Shown: positions 2,455 to 28,872 of the stretch, in pieces | Position numbering within the stretch: the first letter of the stretch is position 1 | Layout of the letters: each line of letters opens with the position of its first letter | Assembly (NCBI GenBank): GCA_965661755.1 | Contig: CBFIEZ010000001.1 | Span: 1-40,238 of the forward strand | Direction: 5' to 3' | DNA: 40,238 bases | From: Minisyncoccia bacterium | GTDB lineage: Bacteria > Patescibacteriota > Minisyncoccia > Phycocordibacterales > DATDWN01 | Made by a program: the position numbers and the translations under genes | Notes under the pieces: generated by a model | What the model saw: only the letters and a program-made list of their open reading frames with translations | Database searches by the model: none | Told to the model about the DNA's origin: nothing

Positions 2455-4471
2455 TTCTTCTCTCCTCAGAAACTAAAGCTAGAGACATGAGGGATGGGGT
2501 AGAAGATCCTGGACCAACTAACTCTGTCCTCCAAACTAACTCATAGAAGTCCTCATTTACATTATTAAACTCCATATCCCTTCTTGTTGTATCTGTAACA
2601 TTCCCTAAGTATCTCATGTTATGGTAGTTCTGGAATGAGAGTGTTGTATCTCCTGTTCCAGTAGCTTTTGTTAATGTCGCTGATGTTCCAACTGGGAGAC
2701 TTGGATTTGCTGTCCCAGATGTTCTTTGGGTGTAGACAACAGTAGATCAAGCATATAATGTAGTGGATATAACAGTATATGTAGAGCCATTATGTGTATA
2801 GGTTGCTCATACTGTTGGTGCTATTGTTGGTGGTGTACCAACTATGAATGAGAACTTATCAGTCTCATTATCCAACGCAGCATAGTATCTTAGGTAACAA
2901 TTAGAGTTTGGTAAGTAGTAACCGTATCTATGTCCTATGAATGCTTTGATAATATCAATATCACGACCATAGAAGACATCATCTACATATCCCCACATTG
3001 AGTAAACACTTGTAGATATGTATGGCGTAGAATAGAGGTATGAGTTTGTGCCACTCTTAGTTGCTATATATAATTTATCTCCATAAACACCCATTGCAGT
3101 AGGTGTACCAATTATATTTGTTGTCTTTGTAAGAGAGTCTGGGAAATCAGGATGATGCTTACCATATGTGATAATGCAGTCAGTTGCTAATATCCAAGTC
3201 AACATTCCAAAGTCAGCTGAAAGATTCTGTGTAGTAGCATTTAGATTCCCACTATTTGCTCATAGAAATTGTAATCTTCTATCTCACACAGCAGTGCTAT
3301 CTCTATAGAGGAGCTTCTTTGTATACCCATTAGAAAGCCATAAGTAGTTTTCATTGAGTGCTTTTGTGATAACAAGTTGATTATCTCCTGTATTGATTGA
3401 CTGCATAATTGTCTGATTCGGCCAGTCAGTTCCTCTAAGAGGTGCAAGACTCACACCATCCCATAAATAGGATTTCTTGCTAGTGTACACAATGATCTGG
3501 TCTCCCACCTTATGTAGACCTATGACAATTTCATTTGTATCAAAAGTTAGTGCTACCTCCGCAGAGTCAGCTCCATTTGTTGTGGAGTCAATTCTTAAGA
3601 TTTTATTTCCAAGACCAACAAATGCATCCCCAAAGAAGAAGAGAACTGGTCTTGTTGTGCTAGTGTATGATCCTGTAGTATATGTGATATAGTTCTCTGT
3701 GAACCCAGCAAGCGAGTCAATACGTACATCCAATATCTTTCCATTGTAGTCTGTACTTGGCACAAGTCTTATCTCATTGAGAGCATCAGTTGGACTAGTC
3801 CCAAAGAAGTACACCACTCCATTGTTTGAACTGCTAAGAGATCAAGTCAGAGGAACATTTCCACTTCCTGTACTTAAGAAGTTAGGAACACATGTTCCAA
3901 GTGTACATCCTGTATGCTGAATCCTAATCATATAATATGTGCTCACAGAAACACCACTTGTAAAAGGTCTAAGTGCTGATGTTCCAGATGAGTGTGTAAA
4001 TCATGGATTGTTGAAAGACCATCATCCACCAATAGACCAAGATCCACTAACAGATGCATCAGGATTAGTCACAACCTCTGTATAAGAGAATGTTGATGTA
4101 TCAAGTCTTCCTATATCAGACGTCCCCAGGAAGTAGTAATACTGTCCTATCTTGAAGCTATTATAGAGCTGTATATCATTTGCATCTGTAGATTTATACT
4201 TGTATACAATAAGATTTGTAGAAAGATCAATTATATACCCAAGAAGTGTTGTAGCATATCTATCATTTATATGGACGATTGTGTCTCCTACTACAAGATT
4301 AGAGAACTCTACACTTGCTATACTTGCAAGAGTGGTATACTTACTATTCCTTCTATGGTCTACATTTCTAGCATCATAAAAAGTCTTAGCAGGTCAAACG
4401 TACTTATCGTTTCTCATACCTCCTGTCCTATCAGTTGTTCTAATACCTACTACGGCTGATGGTGCTGTCAT
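2441..4471 (-). CDS. Large virion structural protein (676 aa), probably tail or baseplate associated
   Basis: ATG 4471 to TAA 2441-2443. It fuses ORF-track fragments 3284..3817 and 2807..3205 and their flanks across 8 in-frame TGA, checked codon by codon. Located downstream of the capsid and adaptor genes. Confidence 0.6.
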
Positions 4472-15323: not shown

Positions 15324-15360
15324 TGTGAGTTTGGTATAATGGGAACTAAAAAGATATTCT

Positions 15361-15445
15361 CGGAAGATGTAGGACTCGAACCCACACACCGAATAAACGG
15401 TGTCCCATTAGCAATGGGGTGCAATAACCATTCTGCCAATCTTCC
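15361..15445 (-). tRNA. tRNA-Ser(GCU), type II with a long variable arm
   Basis: Manual cloverleaf: 7-bp acceptor stem GGAAGAT/ATCTTCC; D arm GCAG/TTGC; anticodon loop TTGCTAA; variable arm CACCG-TTTATT-CGGTG; T arm GTGGG-TTCGAGT-CCTAC; discriminator G. Confidence 0.8.
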
Positions 15446-15477
15446 ATGTACACGGAGCAAGATGATCTGTCTTGCTC

Positions 15478-18076: not shown

Positions 18077-18457
18077 ATGCCGTACTCATTTTTAGCTGGT
18101 AACAAGCCAACTATGATAAATGAGGTACATAATTTATGCTATTATTTAGAAATTGTTAGATATGCCAGTCCAGAGACGATAAGAAAATATAAATTATATC
18201 TTACTATGTTTTTTAGGTATATAAAGAAGCGTGGTATATATGATGTGAGTGATATAAAATTAAGCCTCATAGAAGACTATAAAAAATATCTATATAAGTA
18301 TTATAACGATAGCACCACGGTAAAAGCCATATCCAACCTAAGATGATACTTCAAATATAGAGCAATAATAGATGCACCATTGATCCATTATGAAAGAATT
18401 GAAAACATAAAAAGTCCTTATTGATACTACCATAAAACACCCATATTTTATAGCTAA
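18077..18457 (+). pseudogene. Tyrosine-recombinase (integrase) relic: only the N-terminal SAM-like core-binding domain is present
   Basis: ..YASPETIRKYKLYLTMFFRYIKKRGIYDVSDIKLSLIEDYKKYL......TVKAISNLR[TGA]YFKY matches the XerC/D-type N-terminal domain. The ORF stops at TAA 18455-18457, before any catalytic domain. An alternative start is at 18113. Confidence 0.55.
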
Positions 18458-18613: not shown

Positions 18614-18827
18614 AATATCAAGTCACGAGAAAATATATAGTTTACCGGTAGAATACAAAAACCCTCTAACCGGAGAGGATATAGCTTTGCACCTTAACTC
18701 CCATTAACCATGGGTCTTATATCTTGTGCACACCTGAGCGACGGACTGTCCCAATGTGCACTAGAGGTGCTAATCTAGATCCCATAACTTATATGACATC
18801 GTACTTGGTAGAGTGCGGTGTTTTTTT
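18614..18827 (+). ncRNA. Candidate structured leader or small RNA 1 (about 210 nt)
   Basis: It lies between the promoter at 18579 and an intrinsic terminator. Helices: CCTCT/AGAGG, GCACCT/AGGTGC (long range), CCCAT/ATGGG, GTGCAC/GTGCAC. No ORF. Confidence 0.4.
18797..18827 (+). terminator. Rho-independent terminator
   Basis: CATCGTACT-TGGTAG-AGTGCGGTG forms a 9-bp stem (2 G-U pairs) and is followed by T7. Confidence 0.6.
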
Positions 18828-20770: not shown

Positions 20771-21271
20771 ATGGCTATGTCATCATCACGCGACTGGTGT
20801 GTCAATCTTAGGACTCAAGAGGATTATGACGCCTTCATGTTCTGGTGTGAAAGAAACTGATTGATGTGGTGTGGTAATAGACCAGCACTCTATCAGAACA
20901 ACTGGATAAATTATGGTCCAGATACCTGTGTTTCTTACTCTGATTGAGAACTATGATATTGTAACATTAGTTACTACATGACTAGGTTTATGATAGAGAG
21001 ACCTAGAGATATAATGGAAAGATTTGATTGAGTATATCGTTGATATAATAGAAAACCAACAAGAGATCCACTTATGGAAGAATACACAACATGATTCCAT
21101 AGAGAGCACGAACAATCTATGAAATCAAAACGTTCTGCTAATGATACTATGATGATCGTGGATGAGTTATCAGAAATGCCAAAGGAAAAGAAGAAAGAAG
21201 AAAAGAAAACTGTTATTGATCTCCTTTGAAAGACAAGGAGGAAAAAGATTGTTTTAGATTCTAATTTATAA
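20771..21271 (+). CDS. Hypothetical protein (166 aa), paralog of 22991..23419
   Basis: 8 in-frame TGA, checked codon by codon. Shares the block TQ[ED][DE]YD.[FY]M.W.E..G..W with its paralog. Confidence 0.5.
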
Positions 21272-21734: not shown

Positions 21735-22331
21735 ATGAGAAAACAACAGAATGATGTAACGTATGTAACTATTAAGAACAACAAAGACGAAAATCCAAAG
21801 CCAAGATTCTACATTGAGGATGTTGACTACAGTAGCATCTCAGGAGAACTTGTGTCTATCTGAACTGAAAGAAAAGAAATCACTCCTACAACTGGAGAAA
21901 ATGCATGAAAGAGAATTACCATCCACAATCTTCTGCTAGGAATAGTAGACCATGATGGAGAGATGCAGGTACAAGTATCACTCTATTCATCACTTGCTAG
22001 AAATGCTATCAATGCACTAGCTGGACCAGATGAACTATGAGAGGTGTTCTTATCTGTTTACAAGAACAAGAACGGATTTAGATGTATGTCTGTTAAAAAG
22101 TCAGAGGGCAAAGAAGACTGGTATACACCATTCTATGACCGAGAGACAGAAGCAGGAATGCTTGAAACTAAAACTGAGAAAGGAGAAGAAAAGAAAGATT
22201 ATGATAAATTGACTGATAAATATGTTAAAGAGCTCATCCCTATCATCATTGAGAAGATAGAGAAAAGAGATGCAACAAAACCATCATCAGAAGTTGCTGA
22301 TGATTTATCTAATGATGACCTACCATTCTAA
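21735..22331 (+). CDS. Putative ssDNA-binding protein (198 aa)
   Basis: 3 in-frame TGA, checked. The acidic C-terminal tail ends in ...SNDDLPF, the SSB-type interaction tail. It lies in the replication module. Confidence 0.5.
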
Positions 22332-22741
22332 TGAGGAAAGTAGAAGAAATCTTGGGTAGCCTTGAGGCTATCCTCTCACAAGGGATAGATACCTATTCCA
22401 GAGCAGATCAACAATCAATCATTCAGCTTAGGGATGAGTTCATCCCATATAAGGCTGCAGCAAGAAGGAATGAAAGACAAGCAAGAAGTAATAGAGATAA
22501 GTATTGGGCAGAAAGGACAATCATCCTCAAAAATGAAAAGAATGAGGCTGGGAAATCTATGTACACACAAGTTGAGTATGAAGGAATGATAACTCTTGAT
22601 CCTAAATATATTGAGCTTATGGAAGCACTTAGCTTGGCTGTCTATGAGAACTCATTGTATGATGACAAACTTAGCACCTTCAATGATGCTATCACTCTCA
22701 TAAGAGATGCCATCAAAGATACAGAGGTTAGATCAGCATAG
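22331..22741 (+). CDS. Hypothetical protein (136 aa)
   Basis: ORF-track ORF. Its ATG overlaps the upstream TAA. Confidence 0.5.
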   Translation: MRKVEEILGSLEAILSQGIDTYSRADQQSIIQLRDEFIPYKAAARRNERQARSNRDKYWAERTIILKNEKNEAGKSMYTQVEYEGMITLDPKYIELMEALSLAVYENSLYDDKLSTFNDAITLIRDAIKDTEVRSA

Positions 22742-22990: not shown

Positions 22991-23419
22991 ATGAAGAAAG
23001 AAAAAATTGCTCCAAAGATAGCAGTATTGCTAAAAACTCAAGATGAATATGACCTCTATATGAAATGGGCTGAAAAGAAGTGATATAAATGGGCTACTTG
23101 AGCTGTACCAACAGAAGGAAATGAGTGGACAGAGTTTAAGAATGAGACTGTTGTGGTATGTGGAGACACATTATCATATGGAGGAAGCAGCCAGGCTTGC
23201 TTTGACTGATACACTATTCTCTCTCTCAAGGAAGCTACAGGACTCAAAGCAAAAGTGACTTATGCTGTTGGATATGTGAGAAATGATGGAACAAGATTTA
23301 CTAAAAATACTATTGATAGTGTTGAAGTAAGCATCTTGGAGACATCACTAAAGCATCATTCAAGTGAAGCAAAGAGAATAAATGCATTACTTAGAGCTCA
23401 TAGAAACTTGAAGTTCTAA
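22991..23419 (+). CDS. Hypothetical protein (142 aa), paralog of 20771..21271
   Basis: 3 in-frame TGA, checked. The shared N-terminal block includes a TGA at the same aligned position (EKK[TGA]YKW versus ERN[TGA]LMW). Confidence 0.5.
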
Positions 23420-23445
23420 CTCTATCCCCTACTAGGGGTAGAAAT

Positions 23446-23530
23446 GATTGGTATAGCTTATTGGGGTAGAGCGTGCAGTGCACAATCAAACAGGAAAAGC
23501 AAGAGGTGGGTTCGAGTCCTACTACTAATC
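23446..23530 (+). ncRNA. tRNA-like element B, which lacks an anticodon arm; it sits in a hairpin-flanked cassette spanning 23421-23560
   Basis: Acceptor stem ATTGGTA/TACTAAT (extendable to 8 bp), D arm GCT-TATTGGGGTAG-AGC, and T arm GTGGG-TTCGAGT-CCTAC are all canonical. The 33 nt between the D and T arms form no 5-bp stem with a 7-nt loop at any register. The flanks are homologous to cassette A. Confidence 0.45.
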
Positions 23531-23573
23531 ATCTCTACCTTTATGGTAGCTTTACATTCTAATCTGTATTCAG

Positions 23574-23906
23574 ATGGAAAAAATTAAACAAATTATCAAA
23601 AGACCAGCCTTTATTGGTGTATGTATCTTCCTTGGTATGCTAGGGTGTGGTATGTGGTATGGAATTGCATTGTGAAATGCAAGAGCAAAAGATGACAAGC
23701 CTATTGATCCGGTCACTATCAATAATGCAAGAATCAATGAGATAGACCACTCAATACAAGACAACACTAAGACAATAAGCGATGCCCAAACTATCATTGA
23801 TGCACAAACCAAGATCAAAGACAATGCATCTAGTGGTAGCAAAGCACTTATCATAGAGAAGGAGAAGCTATTAGACGCTAATGCAAAGATTATCTCCTCA
23901 AAATAA
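23574..23906 (+). CDS. Membrane-anchored coiled-coil protein (110 aa), possibly lysis-associated
   Basis: N-terminal TM segment, one TGA. It lies immediately upstream of the lysozyme-like gene. Confidence 0.4.
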
Positions 23907-25576: not shown

Positions 25577-26182
25577 ATGAAACGTGTAATGTTTAACGCA
25601 CATAAACTATTCACAGGTATTGCAAAGCTCTTTGAGCCTAAAAAGAAGAAGTATGTAAAAGGTGGAAAAAAGTATATCCCAAGACCCAAGAGATCAAAGT
25701 ATGAAAAGTATTGGGTAAATCAAAAGATCCCCTTCTCTGAAATCCCAAAAGTAAAGGAATTAAGAAAGACTCATACTCTCCAGGAAATTGCTGACATATA
25801 CCAAGTTAGTAGAGAGAGAATAAGACAAATATGCTGAGGTAGAGTCCTAAATGTTAAGAAAGAAACAAGAGAAAAATTGGAAGAAATAAGGAAGTATGCT
25901 AAAACTCACACACTTAAAGAGATCTATGATAAGTACCATGTAACAGCACAAACCCTCAAGCATCACAATATGGAGTATATTGTTACGAAGAAGATCTATG
26001 AGATATTTGATGGGTATGACCTTATAGGTCTCCTAGAAACATACACATACAAAGAAGTAGCCCAGATGTTCAATGTGTCTATCTGAAATGTCCAATATGC
26101 AAGAGATGTAATACTTGGATTAGGGAAGAGATCAGGCACTTTATCATCTAAAAAGGCTAAATGAAACTCAAACTTATCTTAG
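25577..26182 (+). CDS. DNA-binding protein with three sigma-70 region-4-like HTH repeats (201 aa)
   Basis: HTLQEIADIYQVSRERIRQI, HTLKEIYDKYHVTAQTLKHH and YTYKEVAQMFNVSI[TGA]NVQYAR. 3 in-frame TGA. The 3' end overlaps the next gene by 22 nt. Confidence 0.55.
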
Positions 26183-27447
26183 ACACGCCTAATTACTGTG
26201 CAACAGTAGTAAAGGTCAACAATCTTATTCCACTTGCGTGATGTGATAATGTAGTATGATTCTCTATATTTGGCTTCCAGGCAATTGTAAGTAAAGATAC
26301 TAAGATAGGAGATTATGGGATTATATTTACTGCAGAAACCCAGTTATCTGAGGACTTCTGTAAGAAAAATAATCTCTATAGACATGCCGGATTAAATGAT
26401 GACCCAACCCAAAAAGGTTATGTAGAAGACAATAGGAGGGTGAAAGCTATGAAGTTCAGAGGACACAGATCCTCTGCTCTCTTTATGCCTCTCCAGTCTC
26501 TACTCTATATTCCCTCAACAGAATGAGAGGAGTTTGAGGAGTGAGTGTCTTTCAATCATCTTAATGGTGTAGAGGTTTGCAAAAAATATGTTGTTCATAC
26601 TAGAGAGGGAAGACAAAATCATATAGCTGGGAAGACAAAGAAGTTTGAAAGAATAGACTGCAAAACCTTCCCTGAGCATCTTGATTCTGACAACTACTTT
26701 AGGAATGCCCATATGTACCAACCAGGAGATCAGATCATTGTAACACAAAAACTCCATGGGACATCAGGTAGATTTGGAAACGTGAAAGTAAGGAGAAAGC
26801 TATGACTCTTTGAAAAGATCCTCAAGAAGCTATGAGTGAAAATTAGTGAGATAGAATATGACTACATAGCAGGATCTAGGAGAGTTATTAAGGATGCAAA
26901 ATCAGAAAGAGAGTTCACTCACTACTACTCCTCTGATGTGTGGAATGAGATGCTTGAAAAGATCAAGACCCTCATCCCTAAAGACTACATCATCTATGGA
27001 GAGATTGTAGGTTGGACAGGAGAGAAACCAATCCAGAAGGGGTATACATATAAGATCCCTAAGTGAGAGAATGAGCTCTACATCTATAGGATCTCTATTG
27101 TGAATGATGATGGAGTTGCAACCGATCTTTCATGGAGTGCTATCTTGCATTTCTGTGAGATGACAGGTCTAAAGGCTGTTCCTACCTTTGAGATAATGAC
27201 ACATGAAAAGTTTGAGGCATCACAATTCCTAGATAAGATATTTAGTGAGATGTACCCTCAAGCACTTCCTTTGGATCCAGAGTCTCCATGTGATGAGTGA
27301 GTATGTCTAAGAAGGGAATCTTTATTGCCATATATCACTAAAGCAAAGTCTCCGAACTTCTTTGAGTTTGAGTCTAAGCAACTTGATACATGAGAAGAAG
27401 ATATAGAAAGTTTAGAATCTAATACACCATCACTTGATGATAAATAA
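26161..27447 (+). CDS. RNA ligase, Rnl2/RNA_ligase-family nucleotidyltransferase (428 aa)
   Basis: Motif I TQKLHGTSGRF (K-x-H-G), YGEIVG, motif IV CDE[TGA]VCLRRE, motif V TKAKSPNF. 9 in-frame TGA, checked codon by codon. Confidence 0.7.
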
Positions 27448-28012
27448 TTTTGATTCTTTTGGGTTTGAGTTTGTAGAGTGAGAGTTTTATTTCTTCCAGA
27501 TTCTTGATAGAAGTAAGTCTGGAGGAAATAACAAAACCCGCTGTATCAAGTCATATTATATCGACAACCAGGAGTTCTTTGACAAGAAGAAACCTGAGAT
27601 GATAGAGCTTGCTGATACAACAAAGAGCAGAGTCTATGTCCATCCGGCCAGGAGAAGGAAAGACAAAATAGCTCTTGAACTCCTCTCCTATGTTGCTGAC
27701 TGCATAAATTATGGGGAGCTAGATAGGGTCTGGAGATGATATGAAACTGTTTGTTGAAGAAACCATGGAGTCAAAAAGATGTGGATTGTGGATGTAGATA
27801 GCAATGAAACAGTAGAGGTAAGAAATGCTATTGCTCATATTAAAGACATCCAACCATTCAGAGTGCCTGCAAAGATAGTCAACACAGTCAATTGAGTGCA
27901 TCTCATATATGAGGGATGATTTGATAGGACAAAGTACAAGCTGAAATGGGATATACAGACCAATAATCCAACAGTTATTTATTCCTCAGAAACTCCAAAA
28001 TGAGAGCTATAA
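27437..28012 (+). CDS. Hypothetical protein (191 aa) wedged between the RNA ligase and Pnkp genes
   Basis: It overlaps the ligase gene by 11 nt and the Pnkp gene by 13 nt. 6 in-frame TGA, checked. Motifs WIVDVD and N[TGA]VHLIY. Function unknown. Confidence 0.5.
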
Positions 28013-28872
28013 TACTCAAAGGAATCCCCTCTTGTGGGAAAAGTACAAAGGCTATAGAGCTAGAAAAAGAGTGATATGTCAGAATCAATAGAGACACAAT
28101 TAGAGAAGAAAATCCTGATATGTCTGAGGATGATGTAAGGCACTACAAAAATAGGATGATAACAGATGCTCATGCTGCAGGCTTGAATATTGTAATTGAT
28201 GACACAAACATCAATCCAAATACCCTAGAAAAAACAAAGAAGTTCCTAGAGGCTCTTGCATATGAAACAGAGGTCTTTGATTGCTTTGATGCTGTAATAA
28301 AGGAATGGATAGATGCTCCAGTAGCTCTAGGACAATGTATCACTTGGAACACTAAGAGAGAAAAGTATGTGCCGGAGAGTGTGATATATGACATGTACCT
28401 CCAGGATGATAGGCTCTTAGATAAGAAAGATGTTGTGATTATAGATCTAGATGGGACTCTCTACAATATCGATCATAGATTAGAGTTTGTGACTAATGGA
28501 AAAAGAGATTGGGCACAATTTGAAAGCCAAGAAGAAATAGCAAAGGATCAGGTCTATGATGCTGTAAAGAAAGTAATTACATCACTCTATAACAAATATA
28601 GCATCATCCTTCTTAGTGGTCGTAAAAATAAGAATTGCAAGCAAACTGTAGCCAATCTTGAAAGAGATGGGATCAAATATGATGCCCTCCTAATGAGACA
28701 AACATGGGATAGCAAACCTGACTACCAAGTGAAGCAAGGATTTGTAGATCTCATCAAGAAAAACCACAACATCCTCTTTGCCTTTGATGATAGAAAGCAA
28801 GTGATAGATATGTGGAAGAAAAATGGAGTGTATGTGTTCAACTGTTGTCAAAAAGAAAGTAACGATTTTTAA
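28000..28872 (+). CDS. Polynucleotide 5'-kinase/3'-phosphatase, T4 Pnk-like (290 aa)
   Basis: N-terminal P-loop KGIPSCGKST and C-terminal HAD phosphatase motif IIDLDGTLYN...SGR...FDDR. One in-frame TGA. Confidence 0.8.

Follow-up and report, generated by a model that had tools for sequence, protein, structure and literature searches.

What is a phage gene that has the acceptor, D, and T arms of a tRNA and no anticodon arm: a tRNA in decay, or an RNA that is maintained in this form? The question is raised by an element at positions 23447-23530 (plus strand) of contig CBFIEZ010000001.1 (GenBank assembly GCA_965661755.1, Minisyncoccia bacterium). Positions 1 to 40,238 of the forward strand of this contig were analyzed, and this whole stretch of 40,238 nt, which is an entire phage contig, is referred to as the window. 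We consider the element to be very probably a maintained family member rather than a decayed pseudogene. Sequence comparison gives good support to the view that it belongs to a conserved, hitherto undescribed family of non-decoding tRNA-mimic small RNAs of phages.

The element is intergenic, between the open reading frames (ORFs) 22991-23419 and 23574-23906, both of which are on the plus strand. The Rfam tRNA model (RF00005) matches it over its full length (model positions 1-71) with 36.0 bits, the gathering score being 29. An earlier reading of the sequence, made without database searches (the sequence-only reading), had described a tRNA-shaped gene with acceptor, D, and T arms, and this description holds. 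In the Rfam alignment and by direct reading, the three arms are intact and carry the elbow nucleotides U8, A14, G18G19, and UUCGA, and the variable region has the 4-5 nt of a tRNA. ARAGORN did not call the element; its sole tRNA call in the window is a tRNA-Ser(GCU) at 15360-15446. This is the only canonical tRNA of the window (minus strand, 51.4 bits with Rfam), located at the junction of the divergent blocks of structural and early genes.

The anticodon arm is bypassed in the Rfam alignment via a local end, with 22 nt replacing 11 central anticodon-arm positions of the model. All registers of the 33-nt segment between the D and T arms were enumerated for an anticodon arm (5-bp stem, 7-nt loop, U33), and the best one has 2 of 5 pairs. 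Furthermore, no single deletion of 5-20 nt in the window element yields a 5-bp stem with a 7-nt loop. The arm is thus missing, as had been proposed, and an RNA devoid of the anticodon stem-loop would be unable to decode. The window copy does not encode CCA. The element has everything that defines a tRNA except the anticodon arm and should not be filed as one. Its thermodynamics is unremarkable when taken alone (z = 0.09 for the 84-nt core, -1.85 for 140 nt), so that support for the element rests on the covariance model and on its relatives rather than on folding energy.

Relatives were found by exact-pattern scans and by BLAST. A pattern composed of the D-arm end, GTGC...GCAC, and the T loop retrieved a 59-kb high-GC viral contig from the JGI metagenomes (L002, the same as L005 from IMG/VR). 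Its element (3441-3523) has an acceptor stem, GGGGCGG/CCGCCCC, which is fully different from that of the window, and a central region which is nearly identical to it (GCGUGC-G-GUGCAC-CG-UCAAAC-GAUGAAA-GCAAG). BLAST against GenBank phages added about 20 Gordonia phage records that have this design, namely those of Smoothie-like phages (Smoothie, ClubL, Bachita, Cucurbita, PhinkBoden, WilliamBoone, Miskis, and others), which constitute cluster CQ1 in the Gordonia phage survey, and of BrutonGaster from the genus Oneupvirus. A further member is encoded in the unrelated 152-kb Gordonia phage CherryTomatoes, and Microbacterium phage PrincePhergus shows a related design, where the sequence (U)CGGCCG(A) lies in an 11-nt loop on a 5-bp stem.

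The window element aligns column for column with those from L002, the Gordonia members, and CherryTomatoes. A model built from the window and L002 copies scores the other members at 43-61 bits. With the Rfam tRNA model, the relatives reach 40-51 bits, which is above threshold, compared to 60-71 bits for clearly ordinary neighboring tRNAs. In the Smoothie-like phages, the element is located inside a tRNA cluster. The members carry a variety of labels in GenBank: tRNA-OTHER/undetermined, tRNA-Ala(cgc), tRNA-Leu(cag), tRNA-Val(cac), or tRNA-Pro, and ARAGORN calls the L002 copy tRNA-Val(cac). In the Val and Ala calls, the supposed anticodon is a triplet from within a palindrome, which is described below.

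Several other searches were unproductive. BLAST of the window element itself against GenBank phages returned T-arm matches only, and exact D-arm and fixed-spacing patterns gave 0 matches in IMG/VR. Matches to a 3'-anchored pattern (L006-L011) and one from the metagenome scan (L003) proved to be chance matches within coding sequence. A scan of genome contigs with the central motif gave 15 matches, about the random expectation, none of which is tRNA-like according to the covariance model. The proteins from ORFs 22331-22741 and 22991-23419 (136 aa and 142 aa) match only themselves among 5.8 billion proteins, and the sole other contig that carries the flanking proteins (Logan ERR15116721) is identical. 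IMG/VR scans anchored on the 142-aa ORF and on the RNA ligase found nothing, and the flanking ORFs have no match in a Pfam search. As a side observation, ORF 22991-23419 shares an N-terminal domain with ORF 20771-21271, which is located 2 kb upstream (33% identity over 49 aa, E = 7e-9). Neither of the two could be assigned to a Pfam family, and the 142-aa ORF has weak matches to PHROG 9112 and PHROG 4897.

The aligned members show which parts of the RNA are kept. In the MAFFT alignment, 7 of 7 acceptor pairs have changed on both sides, and the observed covariation was reached by 0 of 500 shuffles. In the model-fitted alignment, 98.5% of the cells are paired, and 10 pairs show double changes; this alignment leans to the structure, and the MAFFT alignment served as an independent check. 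As judged from these sequences, the tRNA frame is under selection in the family.

The central domain (Table 1) consists of a closing helix of 2-3 bp, a perfect palindrome of even length, the motif NAAAC, and a purine-rich tract, with a loop of about 20-25 nt. Pair 1 of the closing helix is U-A, A-U, or G-C, and pairs 2 and 3 are invariant (G-C and C-G). Within our alignment A3, AAAC is invariant, and purines come after it. The loop is where most of the sequence conservation lies, while the acceptor sequence and the discriminator are free to vary, the latter being C, U, G, or A, and no conserved set of synthetase identity elements was found across the members.

Table 1. Central domains of family members (sequence between the D and T stems)
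Member	Sequence
Window	G UGC A GUGCAC AA UCAAAC AGGAAAA GCA AGAG
L002	G UGC G GUGCAC CG UCAAAC GAUGAAA GCA AGUGC
CherryTomatoes	G GGC GUGCGCAC A UCAAAC AGGUGA GCC AAGGU
Smoothie	A GC G GUGCAC CG UAAAAC AGAGA GC AAGGAU
WilliamBoone / Miskis	G AGC G GUGCGCAC CU GAAAAC AGGAGA GCU UGGUU
BrutonGaster	G GGC G GGAUCC C AGAAAC AAGUG GCA GAGAU

Other interpretations of this domain were considered and discarded. The sequence-only reading had seen a mini-hairpin, GTGC-AGT-GCAC, followed by an A-rich linker. This is not kept in the relatives, as GUGC/GCAC pairing is lost in Smoothie (AGC...GCAC) and in WilliamBoone; what is conserved is the palindrome (GUGCAC in the window) and, following it, NAAAC. Local pairing of the purine tract with the 3' half of the palindrome occurs in individual lineages only. 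A Shine-Dalgarno-like reading of the purine tract fails because the feature is absent from L002 and BrutonGaster. An intron (group I or bulge-helix-bulge) was rejected, since deletions of 5-20 nt restore no anticodon arm in 6 of 7 members, the sole solution being that of WilliamBoone/Miskis, which is not common to the others. For a group I intron, the excess of 11 nt is also far too short.

The alternative that the element is a decayed tRNA or the relic of an attachment-site tRNA has to be weighed against these data. Debris of tRNA genes does exist in phage genomes (e.g., the 5' half in Streptomyces phage Jay2Jay, see below), and a 126-aa ORF of the window (18077-18457) resembles the N-terminal part of tyrosine integrases only (PHROG 1, E = 8e-4). 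No catalytic domain follows this ORF in any frame, and on its sequence it may be an integrase remnant. This fragment, 5 kb off, is the nearest integrase-like ORF, and a scan for a host copy with the central motif gave chance matches only. In the element, damage is limited to one arm, which is conserved across phages of unrelated hosts while the stems covary. Recent horizontal copies of a single dead gene are excluded by the different acceptor stems, and the whole cloverleaf frame is present, not just the 3' part expected for an attachment site. None of the homologous loci that were examined has an ordinary anticodon arm; the relatives have the same aberrant central domain. Because this domain is shared and all acceptor pairs covary, the pseudogene reading is largely refuted, and we regard it as extremely improbable, as we do the attachment-site reading, which had been raised from the sequence alone.

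It is also very improbable that the element is a working decoder. The invariant U-NAA-A-C is like the anticodon loops of tRNAs reading UUN codons, and UCAAAC, UAAAAC, and CUGAAAAC resemble U33-NAA-A37 loops; moreover, the PrincePhergus element has G3-U70, A73, and an encoded CCA. However, no member has a stem that closes such a loop, and the U is absent in BrutonGaster. Discriminator and acceptor identity elements are unconserved, and the isotypes assigned by ARAGORN and in GenBank conflict with each other (Val, Ala, Leu, undetermined), with triplets being read from inside the palindrome.

The tract homologous to the window palindrome is a perfect palindrome of even length in all members: GUGCAC, CGGUGCACCG, GUGCGCAC, GGUGCGCACC, or GGGAUCCC. 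Three sequence types (GUGCAC, GUGCGCAC, and GGGAUCCC) occur at one aligned position. BrutonGaster differs from GGUGCACC by two compensatory double changes, and the palindrome types of WilliamBoone and CherryTomatoes contain a central GC insertion that leaves the symmetry intact. Shuffling gave P values for the palindrome of 0.005-0.14 per lineage.

A hairpin is not a suitable interpretation of this tract. The 3-bp stem predicted by RNAalifold leaves a 2-nt loop in most members, which is sterically excluded, and the version with a 4-nt loop has only 1-3 bp and is unconserved. The centers of the palindromes (UGCA, GCGC, GAUC) are themselves palindromic, for which there is no reason in a hairpin loop. 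From this and from the impossible hairpin, a symmetric duplex, that is, an RNA homodimer, follows as the natural reading. The computed self-duplex energies range from -10.9 to -23.3 kcal/mol, and the predicted dimer gains 10-17 kcal/mol; for the window, the predictions are -10.9 kcal/mol for the self-duplex and a gain of 11.6 kcal/mol for the dimer. According to these models, the palindrome points to loop-loop homodimers.

Alternatively, the palindrome might act in the DNA, where a dimeric protein would bind or cut it as a symmetric site, with the RNA being incidental. The tracts are indeed classic DNA palindromes of 6-8 bp (GTGCAC, GGATCC, TGCGCA), and genes for HNH endonucleases are located nearby in L002 and in the Smoothie-like phages. 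Against this, the palindrome sequence varies by lineage while the flanking RNA motifs are constant, and the covarying tRNA fold is a constraint at the RNA level. In PrincePhergus, the palindrome is in the loop of a 5-bp RNA hairpin. In addition, GTGCAC occurs 5 times in the window compared to 5.5 sites expected and is thus neither avoided nor enriched, so that a signal of restriction-site avoidance was also discarded. We consider a DNA-level site quite improbable. Two of the five GTGCAC sites, 18726-18731 and 18756-18761, are 30 nt apart and just 3' of the integrase-like fragment.

In the window, leader and trailer extend the acceptor stem (see Table 2 for coordinates). The two strands form 13 pairs, including 2 G-U pairs, with 1 mismatch. 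Together with the acceptor stem, this stalk gives a predicted helix of about 21 positions with 1 mismatch, consistent with the near-perfect duplex of at least about 20 bp expected for an RNase III stalk. The 9 pairs found in the first 10 leader positions were reached by 0 of 100,000 leader shuffles. The extended acceptor helix proposed in the sequence-only reading is thus real, although its length had been given as about 17 bp. The hairpins claimed on both sides also exist, but since they share bases with the strands of the stalk they are alternative folds and not additions to it: CUACC (23535-23539) has two possible partners, GGUAG at 23437-23441 in the stalk and GGUAG at 23545-23549 in the hairpin. 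The stalk is lineage-specific. It is full in the window and absent in CherryTomatoes and PrincePhergus; in BrutonGaster it amounts to 8 bp beyond an internal loop, and in L002 to 4+3 bp. In the Smoothie-like phages it is impossible, as tRNA-Trp begins 3-4 nt downstream.

RNase P, 3' processing enzymes, and the CCA-adding enzyme recognize the acceptor-T minihelix and the elbow. Because these are kept, the transcript should mature like a tRNA. In the window, the stalk resembles the processing stalks found on either side of rRNAs and of some phage RNAs. No promoter-like site was found near the element, promoters of such hosts being uncharacterized, so that co-transcription with the operon is likely. 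The element would be transcribed as part of the plus-strand operon, a double-strand-specific RNase (of the RNase III type) would cut the stalk, RNase P and 3' processing enzymes would trim the core, and addition of CCA would result in a stable RNA of about 85 nt. Cutting of the stalk would also part the flanking cistrons.

This leads to an alternative which we consider unlikely: that the element is purely for processing or punctuation, with RNase P and RNase III cutting the mRNA between ORFs 22991-23419 and 23574-23906 and the RNA being otherwise idle. Its position between ORFs on the same strand, with no promoter-like site nearby, is compatible with this. A stalk of about 21 positions satisfies the length requirement of RNase III. 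Terminator-like hairpins are present 5' of the element in the window, CherryTomatoes, PrincePhergus, L002, and the Elerivirus Finny, and the syntenic Elerivirus elements retain the tRNA shape with a different, tiny central arm. However, processing requires only the acceptor-T minihelix and the elbow, which leaves unexplained why a phage using genetic code 25 and actinophages share the GC, palindrome, and NAAAC motifs, and why the palindrome is maintained by compensatory changes. Furthermore, the tRNA cluster of the Smoothie-like phages already has ordinary tRNAs as processing sites.

Genes for RNA repair accompany the element. The tRNA-repair cassette that had been noticed in the window from sequence alone is confirmed by domain matches for an RNA ligase and a polynucleotide kinase-phosphatase (PNKP). 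The RNA ligase also has a weak match to the OB domain of PHA02142 (0.0012, 19.7 bits, below the cut-off of 27) and is closest, at 40-44% identity, to ligases from Mycobacterium, Gordonia, and Microbacterium phages. RtcB is encoded in Smoothie and Abscondus, with 22 records at at least 80% identity, a number that appears to match that of the Smoothie-like, BrutonGaster, and OneUp records. According to its existing annotation, CherryTomatoes encodes a polynucleotide kinase and an RNA ligase. Genes for RNA end-healing or sealing are thus present in 3 of 3 lineages with inspectable genomes.

In L002, the element clusters with an abiF RNA motif, a transfer-messenger RNA (tmRNA)-like RNA, and a tRNA-Asn. 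The abiF motif (RF03085, 3654-3690, 50.8 bits, cut-off 37) is directly 5' of the tRNA-Asn and about 130 nt 3' of the family member. The tmRNA-like RNA (3829-3908) has 80 nt and matches the Rfam tmRNA model end to end with 56 bits (cut-off 47). In it, 16 nt replace 310 central model positions, leaving the tRNA-like domain with G3-U70. This mini-tmRNA could be a phage decoy for SmpB or for alanyl-tRNA synthetase.

A role in conflict over tRNA is favored because RNA repair genes are found in all three inspected lineages, because L002 has mimic-like RNA neighbors, and because a second type of unusual tRNA-like gene (the GACG type, see below) exists. Our preferred reading is that the element is a tRNA-mimic RNA whose role would be that of a decoy or cofactor when tRNA is damaged and repaired, to which we assign, from the sequence data, a probability of roughly 0.4. 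Two RNA molecules would join via the palindromic loop, either by kissing or as an extended duplex. The tRNA look-alike would act as a decoy or competitive inhibitor of a host nuclease or toxin directed at tRNA; alternatively, RNA repair enzymes of the phage itself would use it as a cofactor or be regulated by it. A decoy or sponge role had been suggested in the sequence-only reading, and the evidence now available for it, from the repair genes and from the abiF motif and mini-tmRNA of L002, is circumstantial. A bolder version, modeled on the predicted dimer, is rather doubtful: a two-fold symmetric double tRNA mimic, joined by the palindromic loop and employed by phages of Actinobacteria and of a bacterium with UGA as glycine, might be an RNA weapon in tRNA-centered immunity which traps a host defense enzyme that cleaves or modifies tRNA, or serves the phage's RtcB, or its RNA ligase and PNKP (Rnl/PNKP), as cofactor or regulator.

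Several points weigh against the decoy or cofactor reading. The family is based on about 5 independent lineages, and the way in which members were found may have biased distribution and consensus to forms allowed by the patterns. The window palindrome is the shortest one (6 nt) and is not significant alone (P = 0.14). The stalk is not a feature of the family, being lacking in CherryTomatoes and in the Smoothie-like phages, and a fully paired leader would be an obstacle to RNase P, so that the stalk would first have to be cut or opened. No protein family is common to the flanks of the element across lineages, and hence no partner is pointed to. It is fairly common for phages with tRNAs to encode RNA ligases (691 and 379 of 50,697 records), and most phages with such ligases lack the element, so that the co-occurrence in 3 of 3 lineages is suggestive only.

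A further rival accepts the tRNA body as a scaffold for stability and processing and assigns the function to the loop, which would bind a protein of phage or host, or another nucleic acid, as a regulator outside tRNA biology. Engineered tRNA scaffolds operate in this way, and the conserved loop, combined with an acceptor sequence and discriminator that are free to vary, is as expected for this case. A palindrome beside single-stranded purines is also reminiscent of retroviral dimerization and packaging signals (PMC7674771). However, no neighboring gene is conserved, and the D and T loops are conserved too, though this is expected of any tRNA fold. We attach a small but real chance to this scaffold reading.

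Comparison with known systems places the decoy or cofactor reading in context. With canonical tRNAs (RF00005), the element shares the 7-bp acceptor stem, the D and T arms, the elbow, and a variable region of 4-5 nt. Instead of an anticodon stem-loop, the family has a loop of 22-25 nt with the palindrome, and it has no conserved identity elements. The tRNA-like domain of YrlA, a bacterial Y RNA, likewise mimics tRNA without decoding; its D and T arms are conserved, an anticodon loop is missing, and YrlA is genomically linked to RNA repair (rsr-yrlA-rtcBA). It is in effect a circularly permuted tRNA, with the acceptor stem closed by a loop and the ends in a Ro60-binding stem at the anticodon side, and its gene is adjacent to rsr (10.1101/312249). 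The element has the opposite topology, with its ends at the acceptor stem and a closed loop at the anticodon side, and the two have no equivalent of the Ro-binding stem or of the palindrome in common. Membership in the YrlA family was rejected on account of this end topology.

The tRNA-like domain of tmRNA resembles the element as a phage-encoded mimic of acceptor and T arm without an anticodon, and one is located about 300 nt from the L002 member. However, tmRNA has no D stem, has G3-U70, and needs SmpB, whereas the window element has a full D arm and U-A as pair 3:70. ARAGORN found no tmRNA in the window. The dimerization initiation site (DIS) of human immunodeficiency virus 1 (HIV-1), which forms a kissing loop, shares with the element a 6-nt palindrome in a purine-flanked loop, and some HIV-1 subtypes have GUGCAC as their palindrome. 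The resemblance does not go beyond analogy: the two contexts are unrelated, and the element has a much larger loop and a dimerization that is predicted only. In Mason-Pfizer monkey virus, as described in PMC7674771, a palindromic loop is paired with single-stranded purines.

Anti-defense tRNAs of phages (T5 type) are also phage-encoded, tRNA-shaped, altered in the anticodon region, and accompanied by RNA repair enzymes; they are reported to evade cleavage or to replace cleaved host tRNAs (PMC10264068, PMC11555353, PMC10802454). Those tRNAs do decode, their anticodon loops having point changes, whereas the element family, devoid of an anticodon arm, cannot replenish a depleted tRNA. In mascRNA and menRNA, a tRNA-like fold with an abnormal anticodon arm, as in the element, is described as a signal for RNase P and RNase Z that results in a stable small RNA (PMC11693755). 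These RNAs and the engineered tRNA scaffolds are eukaryotic or synthetic and have neither a palindromic loop nor homology to the element. YrlA, the tRNA-like domain of tmRNA, and mascRNA are the closest natural analogs.

Other unusual tRNA-like genes were encountered. A second non-decoding type, found in Smoothie-like phages and in OneUp, has an intact anticodon stem capped by the 4-nt loop GACG. Copies are located at L027 2646-2733 (Smoothie gene 20), L028 1146-1233, L034 1200-1286, and L032 1078-1149 and 1153-1226 (OneUp genes 13 and 14). All have CUGACGAG in common and are annotated as tRNA-OTHER. OneUp has these two genes without the palindromic-loop type. In Smoothie, a 263-nt non-coding spacer (L027 2734-2996) separates two tRNA-OTHER genes; it is kept in PhinkBoden, is replaced by a short spacer in Miskis, and has no Rfam match. 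Miskis gene 20 (L034 1540-1628), between tRNA-Trp and tRNA-Tyr, is a tRNA-OTHER with an annotated 4-base anticodon 'cgtg' and is matched by neither Rfam nor our model R1.

The PrincePhergus element (L040 2501-2586) has a 5-bp stem, an 11-nt loop with the palindrome CGGCCG, G3-U70, A73, and an encoded CCA. Elerivirus phages Finny (L041 112-179) and Sansa (L042 112-179) have a tRNA-like gene of 68 nt with only a mini arm (2-bp stem, 7-nt loop). In all three phages, the element is just 5' of the gene for DNA polymerase I, and the annotated isotypes conflict (Pro, Thr, Ser). Pseudanabaena phage Pan3 has an unannotated tRNA-like sequence (L033 1197-1267) whose D and T arms are separated by only about 20 nt, with no anticodon arm evident; model R1 gives it 31.7 bits, and it does not belong to the family. 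Streptomyces phage Jay2Jay and its relatives contain an unannotated 5' half of a tRNA (L037, about 1001-1025), comprising the acceptor strand and D arm without a T arm. This is true tRNA debris, in contrast to the conserved family.

The features of the locus are compiled in Table 2. The assignment of genetic code 25, which the sequence-only reading had assumed, is corroborated by direct reading, with TGA at conserved glycine positions in motifs of the DNA methyltransferase and the terminase; in addition, total ORF length in the window more than doubles when TGA is read through. On this sequence basis, TGA as glycine implies a host of the Gracilibacteria or Absconditabacteria type.

Table 2. 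Coordinates of the element, its flanking structures, and the RNA repair genes in the window
Feature	Positions	Strand	Basis and remarks
Upstream hairpin CCCC-UACUA-GGGG	23426..23438	+	just 3' of the ORF 22991-23419 stop codon; G23435-G23438 also belong to the stalk
Leader strand of the processing stalk	23433..23446	+	pairs in register with 23530-23543; part of the minimum free energy fold
Acceptor stem, 5' strand, AUUGGUA	23447..23453	+	Rfam tRNA alignment; 7/7 acceptor pairs covary in the family
D arm, GCUU / AUUGGGGUA / GAGC, with A14 and G18G19	23456..23472	+	Rfam alignment; D stem 100% paired in 7 family members
Closing helix, 5' strand, UGC	23474..23476	+	partner GCA at 23499-23501; 3 pairs retained by Rfam
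GUGCAC palindrome of the large loop, through which loop-loop dimerization is proposed	23478..23483	+	predicted self-duplex -10.9 kcal/mol
UCAAAC motif (family consensus NAAAC)	23486..23491	+	identical in L002 and CherryTomatoes
Purine-rich tract AGGAAAA	23492..23498	+	alignment A3; AGGAGA or AGGUGA in relatives
Closing helix, 3' strand, GCA	23499..23501	+	Rfam alignment, family alignment
T arm, GUGGG / UUCGAGU / CCUAC	23506..23522	+	Rfam alignment; 100% paired in the family, 2 pairs double-changed
Acceptor stem, 3' strand, UACUAAU, and discriminator C	23523..23530	+	direct reading, Rfam alignment
Trailer strand of the processing stalk	23530..23543	+	pairing with the leader
Terminator-like hairpin CUACC-UUUAU-GGUAG, then CUUUACAUUC	23535..23549	+	weak; alternative to the stalk, which also uses CUACC
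ATP-dependent RNA ligase, TGA read as Gly	26161..27447	+	PF09414, 6.5e-12
Polynucleotide kinase-phosphatase	28000..28872	+	PF25109 (HAD_PNKP), 1e-21, and P-loop kinase domain

Non-coding RNAs that mimic tRNA are already known as such. As far as can be told, the family with a palindromic loop is defined here for the first time: literature searches, including full text, retrieved no described equivalent, and the Gordonia phage survey does not discuss these tRNA-like genes. The family would account for odd annotations in actinophages, such as tRNA-OTHER and conflicting isotypes.

Phage tRNAs have lately been recast as countermeasures against host nucleases that cut tRNA, and to our knowledge all documented phage anti-nuclease tRNAs are working decoders. 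If the decoy or cofactor reading is true, mimicry without decoding, possibly in dimeric form, would be a strategy distinct from that of decoder tRNAs. As culturable Gordonia phages with genetic tools are among the members, the function is directly testable. This RNA and the RNA ligase also tie the phage of an uncultured host, recoded to read UGA as glycine, to actinophages.

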